Assembly: GCA_900317295.1 (NCBI GenBank)
Contig: ONGB01000003.1
Location: 12,245 to 76,244, forward strand
Length of the DNA: 64,000 nucleotides
From: an uncultured Erysipelotrichaceae bacterium
Lineage (GTDB): Bacteria > Bacillota_I > Bacilli_A > RFN20 > CAG-826
Direction of reading: 5' to 3'
The position numbers and the translations under genes are program-made. The notes under the pieces are model-generated. The model did not search any database. It saw nothing but the letters and a program-made list of their open reading frames with translations, and was not told where the DNA came from. Of the stretch, positions 30,663 through 58,093 are shown piece by piece; position 1 is the stretch's first letter, and every line of letters starts with the position of its first letter.

Positions 30663-30699
30663 CTTATGTTTCTCCTCTTGCTAGTAGTATAATTGGCTT

Positions 30700-30815
30700 G
30701 GGAATGATGTCTCCCATCTAGAAATAGAGAACCGCAATGAAGTGCTGATGACGTCTATGACTTGTTTTGTCATAGAAATCAGCGCTTTTGTTTCTATGGC
30801 AGATGGGAGGTATCG
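30700..30815 (+). promoter_or_regulatory. structured 5' leader of the cation:proton antiporter gene with alternative hairpins and SD sequestration (riboswitch/attenuator-like)
   Basis: TATAAT at 30688-93; TCTCCCATCT (30710-19) pairs with AGATGGGAGG (30800-09), which contains the SD 7 nt before the ATG; inside, GTCATAGA can pair either with upstream TCTATGAC or downstream TTTCTATGGC (mutually exclusive hairpins). Confidence 0.45.
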
Positions 30816-53410: not shown

Positions 53411-53820
53411 TGATAACGTGGGGACGTACTGGTTTTGATTCGGAAGGTCGGTCATCGACTGCAGTGGTCTGGTAGACCCTAAGACCGAAAAACAATAACT
53501 GACAACTCTGTCAAACCCTGGATGGTGCGTAACAACGCCGTCCTCGCTCGCGCCTAATTAGAGCACCCCTCGATGGGTTCCCGCCAAGCGGGACGAGCAC
53601 GTCCGCCCCTCATTTCTCGCCTATTGAGGGAGCGGGCGCAACACCAAGGCGATAAGCGCGTAGCGTTGGCTAGCGCGTAACGTCGAAAACCTTACCAGCC
53701 ATGGGTCATGCGCTTTGGGGCGTATCTTCAACCATGACCCGAGACTTGAAACGCCATAAACTGTAGGCGTCGATGGTTAGTCTTCCGAAGACCGGAGTTC
53801 GACTCTCCGCGTCTCCACCA
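53411..53820 (+). ncRNA. ssrA: transfer-messenger RNA (tmRNA)
   Basis: 5' GGGGACG pairs with 3' CGUCUCCACCA (acceptor stem with G3.U), T-arm GGAGUUCGACUCUCC, ends in CCA; starts and ends like B. subtilis tmRNA; tag ORF GAC(53492)...GCC-TAA(53546-48) preceded by AAUAACU as in B. subtilis; followed by terminator 53834-53866. Confidence 0.93.
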
Positions 53821-54075: not shown

Positions 54076-54576
54076 TTACTTGATGTAGTTGGTAATCATT
54101 CGAGGTTCTTTTGAAGTTTTTTCAATGCCATAGACGGCGACTACCGTTGCGGTTCTTCCGTTTGCCCCGGTTACTTCTATTCCATATGCGTATTTTATTA
54201 CACCGAATTTGTTTTCGTGTATTTTCAATAGACTCGCTGTTCCAGAAATAATCGCGACATGAATCTGGTTTTTCAAAGAAAGGTAGTTTTCCTTTGTATA
54301 CCCTAGCAGTTTTTCGTACAAAACCGCTTTGTCCCTCCCATTTGGGTTATTAAAATCAAGCGAATACTTTAGAAACTTTTCGTCAGGAGTAATTGCCTTC
54401 TTATAATTGGGCATTATTCGACTGGTTGATCCTTCCTTGGGATAGGTTTTAACATCGCTAATTTGCGAATGGCCCTTTTTGTAATTAGATGAAGCGTCTT
54501 TTTCACCACCTCCATATCTTCCGTTTGACGAATCATAGGGCTGGAGCTGATGCCCTCCGCCGATTTTCACTGGCAT
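54076..54576 (-). CDS. hypothetical protein, Gly-rich N-terminus + about 110-aa C-terminal domain (putative toxin-like partner)
   Basis: 166 aa; no match to a housekeeping family; lies in a low-GC islet next to tmRNA, tightly coupled to the DUF4926-like gene. Confidence 0.4.
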   Translation of the reverse strand: MPVKIGGGHQLQPYDSSNGRYGGGEKDASSNYKKGHSQISDVKTYPKEGSTSRIMPNYKKAITPDEKFLKYSLDFNNPNGRDKAVLYEKLLGYTKENYLSLKNQIHVAIISGTASLLKIHENKFGVIKYAYGIEVTGANGRTATVVAVYGIEKTSKEPRMITNYIK

Positions 54577-54664: not shown

Positions 54665-55837
54665 ATGGACGAAAAAACAGAAAATCATAAATTCAACATC
54701 GGAGCTTTTTTGAAAGTGCTGTTTCAGTACCTATCAGACAAATACACAAAAGCTACCGCCACGAACGAGCTGTTTGACCCGTTTTTTAAATACATCGACA
54801 GCTCCTACGATTTTGATAAGGCCATCGTCAGCAAACTCGCTTCGCACAAAATCAATATTCCACAAAAGGTTATCAAGGCGGTTTTGAAATTCGGTAATGC
54901 GAGCAAAAAGGAGTTCGAACGCGCGATTCAAGACATCACTGATGAAAAGTTTTTTCTTTTTCTGGAAGGCTTAGCGGAAGAAATCGAAACACACAAGACC
55001 GAAAGCGCCAAAGAGCTCTCGAGGGTTTTGGATTTTTATAAAGGAAGCGAGGTGAGCGATTTTCTAAATGCGGCGTTTGTTTATGCTGTCCTTTCTCCCA
55101 ACGCGCCAAGCGAGAAAAAACAAAAAACGGGAAGACCAAAAGGAGGCACACACGAATACATTTTTTATCTCTCTCAGACAGAAAAAGAGGAACAGGCCAA
55201 GGTCTTAAAAAACAAAATCCTCAAAAGCGTAAAAAAGTTGACGCTCGACGATCTTCGCGACATTTTGGCTTTAATGACATATACAACGGTTTGTTTTTCA
55301 AAAGAAGAAAAAGTGAAAGCCTCCCTAAGATTTCTTCAAGGATGGAAAGTCCTTTATGGTTTGACCCCGACCCAAGAGCTGTTACAAACAATAAAGGACA
55401 TAGGTAGGTTCAGCGAACCGGATGTTCGTGAAATATTCGTGGGATGGGAGGAAGCGGTTTATGAGGCCAATGATACGAAAAAGGCCAACCATCTAAAAAA
55501 CCTTTTTACCCGAGCAAAAAGAATGAATAGTTTTGCCAACATATCCAAATACGCAGACAGTTTGGTTGATGAAGAAGACTTAGGAAAATCCGGTGCGTTC
55601 TCTGCTTCTTTAGTGAGAAACAAATTCTTTCTCCCAAACTTTTTGGATCATTTGACTAGTTCGTTATGGAGTTATTGTTGCTCGGTGGCTAGGCTGGCGC
55701 ACAAAGCGGGAGTCCAAAAGGATTTTGAGAAAAAGCTTGACGATATGATGGCGGTGACTCCTAAAAACAAAACAACAACCGAGCGGATTGAATACCTCAG
55801 GGAGCTAGCAACACAAGAGATTTCGCGACATTTCTGA
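54665..55837 (+). CDS. hypothetical protein (390 aa, helical, K/E-rich), low-GC accessory gene
   Basis: Long ORF in an AT-rich segment, no Walker or other recognizable motifs. Confidence 0.45.
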   Translation: MDEKTENHKFNIGAFLKVLFQYLSDKYTKATATNELFDPFFKYIDSSYDFDKAIVSKLASHKINIPQKVIKAVLKFGNASKKEFERAIQDITDEKFFLFLEGLAEEIETHKTESAKELSRVLDFYKGSEVSDFLNAAFVYAVLSPNAPSEKKQKTGRPKGGTHEYIFYLSQTEKEEQAKVLKNKILKSVKKLTLDDLRDILALMTYTTVCFSKEEKVKASLRFLQGWKVLYGLTPTQELLQTIKDIGRFSEPDVREIFVGWEEAVYEANDTKKANHLKNLFTRAKRMNSFANISKYADSLVDEEDLGKSGAFSASLVRNKFFLPNFLDHLTSSLWSYCCSVARLAHKAGVQKDFEKKLDDMMAVTPKNKTTTERIEYLRELATQEISRHF

Positions 55838-56069
55838 CCCGCCAATTAAGAAATGTGCAACGACCAACTTGCAATAAAAGTCCAATCTTTTTTCGCAAGG
55901 ATATTGAAAACAAAAACCTTTAAAAAATAAAAAAGAAATTTTTTGAAAATATTTATCGCGCGTGTTTCCTATATATAAAAAGATTAAAGGTGATTTTTAA
56001 GAAAAAAGTTCGATGATTCCTAAGTTTTTGCACATTTTGAAAATTTTTAAAAAAATGTGGAAAAAAGTG

Positions 56070-56097
56070 TTGACATGCGTTTCGAGAGGCGTATAGT
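56070..56097 (+). promoter_or_regulatory. strong sigma-A type promoter (TTGACA-16-TATAGT) driving the large ncRNA candidate
   Basis: -35 TTGACA 56070-75, -10 TATAGT 56092-97; AT-rich UP-like region with inverted repeat CACATTTT/AAAATGTG at 56039-56064. Confidence 0.65.
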
Positions 56098-56103
56098 AAT
56101 GTG

Positions 56104-57568
56104 TTCCGCGGGGAACGCTGAGCTTCGGCTCTGCGAAACCGCGAAACCTCAGATCTTGGTTCTACAAGTTCTGTGAAGGGAATGCACGATGCCCCCAGGG
56201 CTCCTTGCCTCAAAGGTCGGCTGCCTCGAAAGAGACAAAGGCGATGCGGAATCTTGACCCCGCACCTCTACGGAGCGCTTCTCCGTTCGGTAAACCGATA
56301 AAACGAAGGTGGACGGTTAAACCTCTTGGCTACGGCCTTCTGGTGGACCCGCTCACAAAGGGCTCCTCTTCTTGGGTTGAGGAAAGCCACCGCCGAAGCG
56401 CTACCCTGGCGGCCAGTGAACTGGTGAGAAAGGGCGCTGCGAGAAAGCTTGAAAAAGCCAACCTCGCGATCTGGAGACAACGGACTTCGCCGAATCTCCA
56501 AGCGGAATTCATCCCTCCGCCTCGTGCACGAGAAAAAGCGATGATGCCCCGCGTAAACGCTTGCCAAAGCGGTAGCAACGGGCGAAGGGCAACCCTCGGA
56601 AGGAATCCTGCCTTCCCCAGTAAACTGGGAAAACCAAGGGTGACGGGCCAAACCGGACCATCAATCCCGGTCAACCGTCTAAGCCAGAGGAAGCGATTCC
56701 TCTCCGTGGAACACCCCATCCACCCGATAATCATCGCGAAACATGGGACCCAGCAAGGACCTAACCCCGCAAGGGAACGGACGACCTGGTCAACGGGCTG
56801 CATCGAAAGATGATGTCCGCGGCGCTTCTGCCCCGCCGCCAAGTAGAACTTGGATAAAGTCTCAGGTGGATGAACCGCAAGGTTCGAAGAGGTGAAAAAC
56901 CTCCGGCCCCGAGAGAAGGCCCCGGTAAACCGATAACTTCCCTCTCCGACCGCATCATGGCATGGCCCAATCCGCCCTCTGCCGCGGAAGGTAGTCACCT
57001 ACATCAGGTGCGACGATAGCCTCGCCGTCAGTGAAACTGGAAATGAGGCTGCGAATCCGTCGGTTCCCTTCGGGGCTCAGGCTGATCCGTGAACTCCTAG
57101 GAATTCATAACTAGGATGGTGCCAAAAGAGGCTCGGCGCGCGGTAAACCGCTGGAAAAGCCTCGAACCCAGACGCAAGCCTGGGGGAGATCAGAGACGCA
57201 AGTCCCTGAAGGAAGTCGTTCCACCCTGCAATTCGTGAAGTCGGAACGTGGTAGAGATACCTGAGCGAACGAAGATGTACCTCAGGATCGACATCGAGAC
57301 CTACTAGGAGCGATCCGAAATAGGCCTAGGAAGATAAGAGTTCTTCTCAGCGGTACACCGCGAAATCAAAAACTTGTTCCTGAATGCCTTCCTTGATCAA
57401 GCAAGGTCCGCGGTAAGGATCGATCATCCTCGGATGAGTGGTTGGTTGGAATCTCCCACGAGGTAAACCTCGAATACGAAATATCCCGACGCAATTGGAG
57501 CTATACGAGTCGTTAAACAGGAAAGCCAAGCGACACCACGCAGCGATGCGTGGCGTTTTCTTTTTTAG
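56104..57568 (+). ncRNA. candidate large (about 1.47 kb) GC-rich structured noncoding RNA of unknown class
   Basis: Bounded by a consensus promoter and an intrinsic terminator (CCACGCA-GCGA-TGCGTGG + TTTTCTTTTTT at 57535-57568); no T-runs inside; only overlapping Arg/Pro-rich low-complexity ORFs on both strands; many hairpins capped by UUCG/GNRA loops (GAGC-UUCG-GCUC 56119-30, CCC-UUCG-GGG 57067-76, several GCGAAA); CGGUAAACCG occurs 3 times. Confidence 0.55.
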
Positions 57569-57571
57569 GGC

Positions 57572-58093
57572 TTATTTGTCGATGTAGAACACCCGTCCGG
57601 GCTTTCTTTCTTTCGCCGGAGCGGGTTGGCCATAGCCTAAGGCGCAGTGGCCAATGCCTTCATAATCCCCTTCAATCCCGTGGGCTTTGAGCCAGGCCTT
57701 GCCTTCTTCGGAATCGAATTCCTCTTTCGCACGATGGATCCAAATCGATTGGACGCCTTCCGCTTGGGCGGCGTTCATGAGGTTGCCTAAAGCCAACGAG
57801 CCATCATAGATGTAGCAGAACGCGTCTTTCCTGGCCAAGACGATGACGATGACCGGGGCGCCATAGAAGGGGTCAATGTCTCCTCTTCCTAGGATGCCCG
57901 CGTTAAGCTTGCGCAGCCATTCCCTTTCTTTCTTATCGCGGACCACGACGAAGATCGGGCTTTGGGAGCCGACGCCGGTGGGGGCGTATAACCCCGCTTC
58001 GAGGATGCGGTCGAGTTTCTCTTGCTCCACCGTTTTCTCTGGATCGAAAGCGCGGCAGCTCCTCCGCGTGAGTAAGGCTTCTAATGCTTCCAT
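57572..58093 (-). CDS. nitroreductase-family protein
   Basis: 173 aa; LLTRRSCRAF N-terminal motif and FMN-binding fold motifs. Confidence 0.8.
   Translation of the reverse strand: MEALEALLTRRSCRAFDPEKTVEQEKLDRILEAGLYAPTGVGSQSPIFVVVRDKKEREWLRKLNAGILGRGDIDPFYGAPVIVIVLARKDAFCYIYDGSLALGNLMNAAQAEGVQSIWIHRAKEEFDSEEGKAWLKAHGIEGDYEGIGHCALGYGQPAPAKERKPGRVFYIDK

Follow-up and report, generated by a model that had tools for sequence, protein, structure and literature searches.

A large, conserved and structured non-coding RNA of no known family near the tmRNA gene of an uncultured Erysipelotrichaceae bacterium

Locus and transcription signals

The stretch of DNA analyzed here, hereafter the window, comprises 64,000 nucleotides from an uncultured Erysipelotrichaceae bacterium (contig ONGB01000003.1, positions 12,245 to 76,244 of the forward strand). 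Between the transfer-messenger RNA (tmRNA) gene and a nitroreductase gene it carries a unit of ~1.45 kb that is conserved, heavily structured and non-coding, is bounded by promoter and terminator signals and matches no Rfam family. Very probably this unit is a new conserved structured non-coding RNA (ncRNA) gene. Its parts are as follows.

55912..56069, + strand: AT-rich upstream region (25% GC), which travels with the RNA gene and resembles an UP element
56070..56097, + strand: sigma-70-type promoter, close to the consensus and kept in species B
56104..57534, + strand: body of the structured ncRNA, ~1.43 kb long (~1.46 kb including the terminator), with ~45-50 local hairpins
57536..57566, + strand: intrinsic terminator with a 7-bp stem (57536-57542 / 57547-57553), a GCGA loop and a U tract (57556-57566)

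The promoter proposed in the first-pass annotation of this DNA was recovered as TTGACA at 56070-56075 and TATAGT at 56092-56097 on the + strand, separated by a 16-nt spacer and agreeing with the consensus in 11 of 12 positions. In a promoter scan it was the top promoter-like site anywhere in the region of 53-59 kb. Its counterpart in a second species (species B; see below) is TTGCAT-N16-TATAGT, with a similar spacer (GCGTTTC...GCG), much of which is kept, and the first transcribed bases, ATGTGTTCCGC, are identical in this species and the window. A long A/T-rich tract also lies upstream of the promoter in species B. Just upstream of the -35 box in the window is an inverted repeat of 14 nt (56025-56038 / 56052-56065, TTTTTGCACATTTT / AAAATGTGGAAAAA), whose arms are 93% complementary and which could serve as an operator or as part of an UP element. 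A few positions inside this repeat (56025-56065) differ among strains.

The terminator, placed at 57535-57568 in the first-pass annotation, was likewise recovered, as a hairpin (57536-57553) with a T-rich tail (57556-57566); five of the 7 bp in its stem are G-C pairs. It is kept in all strains of the window species and was seen in lineage A (the window lineage) only, as the contigs of other lineages stop earlier; in the alignment of homologs the 3' part is missing in lineages B and D. Judging by these signals, the gene would be strongly transcribed from its own promoter with its AT-rich upstream region, and transcription would end at the intrinsic terminator.

Five JGI contigs of 1.0-1.4 kb, counted to three lineages (L097, L110, L113, L114 and L115), lie wholly inside the predicted transcript, with 5' ends at 56112-56161 and 3' ends at 57132-57534. 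They may be metatranscriptome assemblies, since their ends would fit assembled transcripts. Two of them, belonging to different lineages, have their 3' ends at 57532 and 57534, right in front of the terminator stem, which hints at 3' trimming. Nucleotides 1-27 of L097 do not match the window, whereas its other 1410 nt do, and are probably an assembly artefact at a hairpin.

Homologs in four lineages

Homologs were retrieved from protein-indexed collections using spurious open reading frames (ORFs) on the RNA as handles. A related-locus search of JGI metagenomes with an ORF of 202 amino acids yielded two contigs (L109 and L110), which nhmmer aligned to the whole RNA (E 1e-163 and 1e-150, respectively; 66.5% identity over 1339 nt). 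Comparison by phmmer with 1.84 billion representative proteins added two further spurious ORFs, P0059 and P0060, whose contigs (L113/L114 and L115) contain full or near full-length homologs (E 1e-220, 1e-212 and 1e-96). A 746-amino-acid repetitive protein from the phmmer scan (P0058) was discarded as a low-complexity false match.

The RNA is therefore conserved in at least four lineages, namely A (the window), B, C and D; the further three are 66-77% identical, and pairwise identity among lineages A-D is 69-78% by BLAST. All four come from bacteria of the gut or rumen that have not been cultured, and at least one is a Bacilli metagenome-assembled genome (MAG). Within the window species, contigs from rumen and gut metagenomes, found by exact-protein look-ups with the flanking genes, carry the RNA with 97.4-100% identity.

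The neighboring genes were poor guides to homologs. The nitroreductase used in a synteny search of GTDB genomes is too widespread (the best among the matches listed is 64% identical), and none of the 80 loci listed in that search contains the RNA. The neighboring ORF of 390 amino acids is an orphan gene of this species only. In the closest of the relatives found through the 421-amino-acid neighbor (L104, 77% amino-acid identity), the contig stops ~50 nt short of the position of the RNA.

Conservation of base pairing

The covariation expected of a functional RNA is strong. For lineages A plus B, RNAalifold predicted 370 pairs, 81 of them with compensatory changes. In a five-sequence alignment 95.2% of the cells are paired, compared with 36-45% when the partners are slid along the alignment, and the 81 compensatory pairs compare with 3-13 in the slid controls; none of 500 shuffles reached the observed values. 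The four-lineage alignment gave 307 predicted pairs (95.8% paired). Compensatory changes occur at 110 of them, compared with 8-23 when the partners are slid; with four lineages these figures apply to the fold as a whole and do not give significance of the R-scape type for single pairs.

Circularity was avoided by folding the window sequence alone and then scoring its pairs in the other lineages. Pairs changed on both sides were kept in 65 of 90 cases in lineage B, 55 of 69 in C and 46 of 62 in D, whereas slid controls kept ~33-36% (Fisher p 1e-9 to 1e-11). Among strains of the window species 29 sites inside the RNA vary, and two of these changes are paired: C to U at 57304 accompanies G to A at 57317, with the U-G intermediate present in strain L102. 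What selection maintains here is the pairing of bases and not a reading frame.

Coding potential

Overlapping ORFs do occur on both strands of the region (202 amino acids on the + strand, 222 and 127 on the - strand), and the Arg-rich, fairly Pro-rich composition noted earlier was confirmed (12-16% R, 7-10% P). The absence of coding potential claimed for them also holds. Between lineages A and B, substitution rates at the three codon positions of the 202-amino-acid frame are 0.33, 0.41 and 0.32, that is, without codon periodicity, and the indels are mostly of 1-2 nt and mostly not multiples of three. The region of species B homologous to this ORF has 5-11 stops in every frame. No ORF of at least 20 amino acids is kept in all lineages, and none is better conserved than its antisense counterpart; apparent protein similarity is equal on both strands and thus merely reflects conservation of the nucleotide sequence. 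Among 5.8 billion proteins the 202-amino-acid ORF matched its own 90% cluster only, and among the 1.84 billion its homologs are solely spurious ORFs on the same RNA, so the internal ORFs have no protein homology beyond the RNA itself.

Search for known RNA families

Scanning the whole window against Rfam 15 at gathering thresholds gave only tmRNA (53420-53820) and a fluoride riboswitch (30691-30764). The latter (RF01734) scored 37.5 bits, above the gathering score. A permissive Rfam scan of 55800-57700 at E up to 10 returned just noise in the AT-rich promoter region, with no match to OLE, GOLLD, ROOL, raiA, HEARO, RNase P, introns or ribosomal RNA (rRNA) in lineage A. Nor did cmscan match the homologs to known families at E up to 1 (lineage B) or up to 5 (C and D), in line with the first-pass annotation, which could match the RNA to no known family. 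Models of 6S, SRP, small- and large-subunit (SSU/LSU) rRNA and Csr/Rsm RNAs gave no match to the RNA region in the Rfam scans. A group II intron is not indicated, there being neither an Rfam match nor a conserved ORF, and ARAGORN found no tRNA gene at 53-58 kb, the tmRNA alone being reported. Literature searches found no description of this RNA.

Fold architecture and composition

All helices with covariation support span ~50 nt or less. When helix runs were defined as at least four columns paired in all lineages with at least two covarying positions, 19 short-range runs were found, compared with 3 in a parallel-orientation control, and at long range the numbers were 6 and 6. The fold of the window sequence alone gave the same result: pairs of up to 70 nt that changed on both sides were kept in 153 cases and broken in 42, whereas for pairs beyond 70 nt the counts were 13 and 13. 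Long-range pairs changed on one side were kept in 19 cases and broken in 75. The long-range helices predicted by minimum-free-energy folding or RNAalifold, such as 56198-56207/56742-56751 and 56765-56783/57058-57075, were rejected, having many broken pairs; they are not believable because as many double-changed long-range pairs are broken as kept and because the number of long-range runs equals that of the control. A search for pseudoknots and kissing loops by covariation found nothing above chance. In this alignment-based model the RNA appears as a chain of ~45-50 short-range hairpins and small junctions, linked by A-rich single strands. Its main elements are as follows.

56287..56298, + strand: G[UANA]C hairpin 1, UCGG-UAAA-CCGA followed by UAAAAC, with an enclosing helix (56278-56281 / 56305-56308)
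56412..56425, + strand: hairpin 2, CCAG-UGAA-CUGG, in an internal loop (GGCGG ... UGAGAA) of a covarying outer helix
56521..56532, + strand: hairpin 3, CUCG-UGCA-CGAG followed by AAAA; the loop is UACA in lineages B, C and D
56598..56628, + strand: two-hairpin element, GGAAGG-AAUCCUG-CCUUCC followed by G[UANA]C hairpin 4 (CCAG-UAAA-CUGG) and GAAAAC
56794..56819, + strand: two-tier hairpin, CGGGC-UG-CAUC-GAAA-GAUG-AU-GUCCG
56923..56932, + strand: G[UANA]C hairpin 5, CGG-UAAA-CCG followed by AUAA or AAAAA; invariant except for the loop UACA in lineage D
57014..57053, + strand: module with an outer helix (three covarying pairs), 5' loop GCCGU, hairpin CAG-UGAAA-CUG and 3' loop GAAAU
57086..57163, + strand: most conserved stretch, with the hairpin UCCUAG-GAAUUCAUAA-CUAGGA (10-nt nearly invariant loop), GGUGCC and the hairpin 7 module
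57211..57255, + strand: nearly invariant block GAAGGAAGUCGUUCCACCCUGCAAUUCGUGAAGUCGGAACGUGGU, with an 8-bp hairpin (57217-57224 / 57240-57248)
57329..57361, + strand: invariant hairpin GGAAGA-UAAGAGU-UCUUCU, followed by hairpin 8 (GCGG-UACA-CCGC) and an A-rich tail
57460..57471, + strand: G[UANA]C hairpin 9, GAGG-UAAA-CCUC followed by GAAUACGAAAU; the stem is AAGG/CCUU in lineage C

One unit recurs nine or ten times in the fold: a stem of 3-5 bp closed by G-C with a U-A/G-N-A loop, followed by an A-rich tract. The loops (UAAA, UAGA, UAAG, UACA, UAUA and UGAA) stay in the family while the stems covary across lineages, and the unit often lies within an outer helix that has a G/C-rich 5' internal loop. 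Thus, the stem of hairpin 1 appears as UCGG/CCGA, UUGG/CCAA or CCGG/CCGG with the loop UAAA or UAGA in the four lineages, that of hairpin 4 as CCAG, CUAG, CUGG or CCGG, and the stem in the 57329-57361 element covaries in lineage C (GCUG/CAGC); the loop of hairpin 2 is UAAA in lineage C. The hairpin 7 module reads GAGGCU-CGGCGC-GCGG-UAAA-CCGC-UGGAAA-AGCCUC. On the + strand of the RNA the pattern NN-G[U(A/G)NA]C-NN occurs as a hairpin nine times, while 0.14 would be expected from the rest of the window (Poisson 5e-14), and 1000 shuffles never gave more than three. The hexamer GTAAAC is found 6 times in the 1.47-kb RNA region and 14 times on both strands of the rest of the 64-kb window.

Other loops are of the GNRA (GAAA, GCAA and GCGA) and UUCG/CUCG types, and several long loops (AAUCCUG, GAAUUCAUAA, UAAGAGU and GAAGAU) are nearly invariant. 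Near-invariance extends to several blocks of 20-45 nt; those at 57128-57163, 57211-57255 and 57329-57361 are almost unchanged among lineages A, B and C. The hairpin GGAAGG-AAUCCUG-CCUUCC does not vary between A and B and differs by a single loop change in C and by several in D, and in the two-tier hairpin at 56794-56819 the outer tier is nearly invariant and the inner stem covaries (CAUC, CUGC, CGGC). The repeat and tetraloop motifs listed in the first-pass annotation are all present: CGGTAAACCG three times (56288, 56923 and 57141), GAGCTTCGGCTC at 56120, CCCTTCGGGG at 57066 and GCGAAA four times.

The ~1.46 kb between promoter and terminator has a GC content of 55.8% and contains much more A (26.6%) than T (17.5%). 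As reported before, it lacks internal T runs: the longest one in 56104-57534 is of 2 bases, and TTT is absent where shuffles predict 7.5 occurrences. The counts of UUU in lineages A, B, C and D are 0, 3, 0 and 0, with 7.5, 7.0, 6.5 and 2.4 expected. Since the near-absence of UUU would keep the many G+C-rich hairpins from acting as premature terminators, we infer selection against premature intrinsic termination. For the triplet AAA the counts are 48-65 in the three lineages with full-length sequence and 33 in lineage D, whose sequence is shorter.

Two loop motifs, CUUG at 56253-56256 and CAAG at 57398-57401, are complementary and kept in all lineages that cover them. A loop-loop contact between them is possible from their sequences, with no covariation there. 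At 56648-56652, within a poorly conserved hairpin, the window strain and L001 have GCCAAAC and all other compared strains GTCTCGC; these four clustered changes may mark a small recombination patch, strain changes elsewhere in the RNA being scattered and single. Reading the modules as kink-turns or T-loops was rejected by eye, the consensus not being fitted. An internal tandem duplication of ~610 nt was likewise not adopted: similar blocks are colinear, but the global alignment reached a z of 2.5-3 and the profile an E of ~0.02, which leaves an ancient duplication of this size as a weakly supported possibility. The clear repeat in the RNA is the hairpin unit.

Genomic neighborhood and distribution

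The RNA gene lies 2.3 kb from the tmRNA gene, and its neighbors in species A are tmRNA, an islet, the nitroreductase gene and nrdG. The islet, which extends from 53821 to ~55911 and has 41% GC, differs in content between strains. In the window and most contigs it holds DUF6883 and DUF4926 genes (54076-54576 on the - strand, and neighbors) and the 390-amino-acid orphan ORF (54665-55837), whereas L095, L096 and the relative L104 have a Phd/YoeB toxin-antitoxin pair instead. It has the appearance of a classic site of tmRNA-linked swapping. Strains that differ in their islets become homologous again at 55911-55924, upstream of the promoter. The same RNA is present whichever islet is carried (L095 compared with the window and L001), and the RNA gene is thus a stable neighbor of the islet and not part of it. 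The location inside a low-GC islet suggested by the first-pass annotation needs correction accordingly: the RNA and its upstream region from ~55912 are kept in all strains, beside the islet. In two contigs (L098 and L099) an IS200/IS605-type Y1 transposase gene stands directly after the terminator U tract and before the nitroreductase gene; in L098 it occupies positions 1702-2417, the insertion point corresponding to about 57562 in the window.

In species B a GGDEF-domain gene lies upstream of the RNA. An oapA-type gene was not found among the neighbors of the RNA in species A, nor upstream of it in species B.

The 90% clusters of the DnaB, NrdD and TrxB proteins of the window are named 'Bacilli bacterium' and 'Candidatus Enteromonas sp.' The host is thus a Bacilli MAG of the genus Candidatus Enteromonas, with a reduced genome; this genus is GTDB UBA733 (order RFN20, family CAG-826). 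One described Candidatus Enteromonas species has a genome of ~1.2 Mb with 57% G+C (PMC8035907). Two sister Candidatus Enteromonas MAGs (L116 and L117; GCA_034089705.1 and GCA_034171505.1), whose nrdD is 81-82% identical in nucleotides to that of the window, lack the RNA within 10 kb of nrdD. In both, the gene after the nrdD-trxB-nrdG block encodes a Na/Pi cotransporter, and the nitroreductase gene and the RNA are not there; the whole stretch from tmRNA to nitroreductase may be accessory in the window species. In relatives with a 42-43% identical 421-amino-acid neighbor the tmRNA is present without such an RNA beside it. The distribution of the RNA among the relatives compared is patchy.

BLAST searches of phage and plasmid collections gave no match. 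Seven scans of IMG/VR, six of them with DNA patterns from conserved blocks, produced chance matches only, so that the GOLLD/ROOL-type mobile-element setting supposed earlier lacks a phage link. The rejected candidates include L112 and 48 loci from a looser pattern, which have no further similarity to the RNA, and L111, whose profile match (E 1e-4) is short, surrounds the 18-mer used as seed and lies in apparent coding sequence.

Interpretation and alternative explanations

The covariation, Rfam and ORF tests support the central reading of the first-pass annotation, a large structured non-coding RNA of no known family that extends from promoter to terminator. We consider it somewhat more probable than otherwise that this RNA is the founding example of an undescribed giant class of bacterial ncRNA that organizes a new large ribonucleoprotein particle or RNA machine.

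How it would act can be proposed only tentatively. The RNA might work in trans as a multivalent scaffold or binding platform. One partner, most likely a protein, would dock at each of the repeated G[UANA]C hairpins with their A-rich tails, and further partners would be bound by the invariant blocks. Such binding would build a large ribonucleoprotein particle or sequester a factor. This mechanism is favored because of the reiterated hairpin-plus-A-tail unit, the many invariant blocks, helices among them, and the lack of supported long-range helices.

Several points weigh against this picture. The scaffold role is deduced from the anatomy of the modeled RNA, and an RNA that is catalytic or assembles itself would likewise be compatible with so many distinct invariant blocks. 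The protein-sponge RNAs known so far are far below it in size and complexity. The alignment comprises only four lineages, effectively four sequences, and may miss long-range helices or pseudoknots. The ends of the species A contigs can alternatively be explained by assembly breaks at variable flanks. Finally, no protein gene is a conserved neighbor in species A and B, and the genomic context thus offers no hint of a partner.

The main rival to the scaffold is an RNA-only machine, that is, a globular ribozyme or a self-assembling homo-oligomer like ROOL, GOLLD and OLE, in which the role of the A-rich strands and of the GNRA and UANA loops would lie in tertiary or quaternary contacts between RNAs and not in contacts with protein. 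ROOL, GOLLD and OLE are described as forming RNA-only multimers (PMC12286853). The size of the RNA, its dense conserved helices, its many GNRA (GAAA, GCAA, GCGA), UUCG and UANA loops, its invariant loops (GAAUUCAUAA and AAUCCUG) and helices and the complementary CUUG and CAAG loops would all suit such a machine. However, no long-range helix is supported although the same test detects short-range ones, which speaks for a modular fold of extended shape; lineage C has AAAUUC where the palindrome GAAUUC would be required, and no pseudoknot candidate exceeds chance. We therefore regard this alternative as unlikely, if worth keeping in mind.

Another explanation holds that the RNA is cargo of a mobile or defense-related element left by an old insertion beside tmRNA and serving that element in defense, anti-defense or maintenance. 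Its closeness to tmRNA and to the strain-variable islet, the patchy distribution with sister MAGs and more distant relatives lacking the RNA at the corresponding places, and the different genomic context in species B all point that way. Yet the RNA and its upstream region persist in all strains although the islets are exchanged, they are not accompanied by an integrase, a repeat boundary or a phage gene, the GC content of the RNA matches that of the host, and neither the phage and plasmid collections nor IMG/VR yielded more than chance matches. An origin of this kind is improbable.

Still less probable is a precursor cut into many small hairpin RNAs, as in an array of small RNAs. The serial arrangement of local hairpins, the repeated units and the conserved single-stranded linkers would suit it, but apart from the UANA hairpins the units are unlike each other, they follow no regular period (the self-similarity being that given above for the duplication), and assembled contigs cover almost the full length.

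That the RNA is a divergent member of a described family (an OLE variant, ROOL, GOLLD, a group II intron, RNase P or an rRNA fragment) is very improbable. Variants of OLE with reduced structure do occur in the reduced-genome gut clades RF39 and TANB77 (PMC11332333), but the RNA is more than twice as long as OLE or ROOL, has no oapA-type neighbor and was not matched by cmscan even at the permissive thresholds used for the four lineages. A protein-coding gene or decayed pseudogene, suggested by the ORF of 189 or 202 amino acids that gene callers annotate in public assemblies, can practically be dismissed, given the missing homologs, the broken frame without codon periodicity, the equal conservation of both strands and compensatory pair changes that neither a coding gene nor a decaying pseudogene would be expected to show.

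Large structured bacterial RNAs are few: rRNA, RNase P, tmRNA, group I and II introns and, lately, OLE, GOLLD, ROOL and raiA. Each of those found so far opened a new line of work. To our knowledge, at ~1.45 kb the RNA described here would be the largest structured bacterial RNA outside rRNA and introns. Holding a conserved RNA of the size of 16S rRNA in a genome of ~1.2 Mb is costly, and an important function is therefore implied. With no family match and an unusual modular fold, the RNA is a concrete target for structural and partner studies, and the four-lineage alignment with its invariant blocks makes a wide covariance-model search possible at once. Moreover, spurious ORFs on structured RNAs can be used as handles for finding RNA homologs in protein-indexed metagenome collections.

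Comparison with known systems

Like OLE (RF01071), this ncRNA is large and ornate, stands alone in genomes of Bacillota and is extensively conserved in both sequence and structure; OLE serves as a ribonucleoprotein scaffold with Oap proteins. The RNA differs from OLE in being ~2.4 times longer and in having no covariance-model match, no oapA neighbor and no apparent long-range helices. GOLLD (RF01998), at ~800 nt the largest ornate bacterial ncRNA described before, shares the many hairpins; it is usually phage-borne beside tRNAs and forms RNA-only multimers, whereas no phage link and no model match were found here. ROOL (RF03087), first found in rumen metagenomes, is also large and ornate, but has ~580 nt compared with ~1450 nt here, forms a cage and contains long-range multi-stem junctions; its model does not match the RNA either. 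The RNA resembles 16S rRNA in its length (~1.5 kb), in having unpaired regions rich in A and numerous GNRA and UUCG loops, and in a strong promoter preceded by AT-rich DNA. In contrast to 16S rRNA, it occurs in a single copy outside any rRNA operon, without supported long-range helices or a match to the SSU or LSU models.

CsrB and RsmZ resemble it in another respect, namely in repeating a short hairpin motif along an independent transcript that has a promoter and a terminator to itself. Where theirs is GGA, the motif of this RNA is G[UANA]C with an A-rich tail; the RNA is ~4 times longer, and it contains many other invariant elements that are not repeated. In the four-lineage fold GGA lies mostly inside stems, and the reiterated loop is U-A/G-N-A. 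As in CsrB and RsmZ, such reiteration of a hairpin suggests multivalent binding of one partner.

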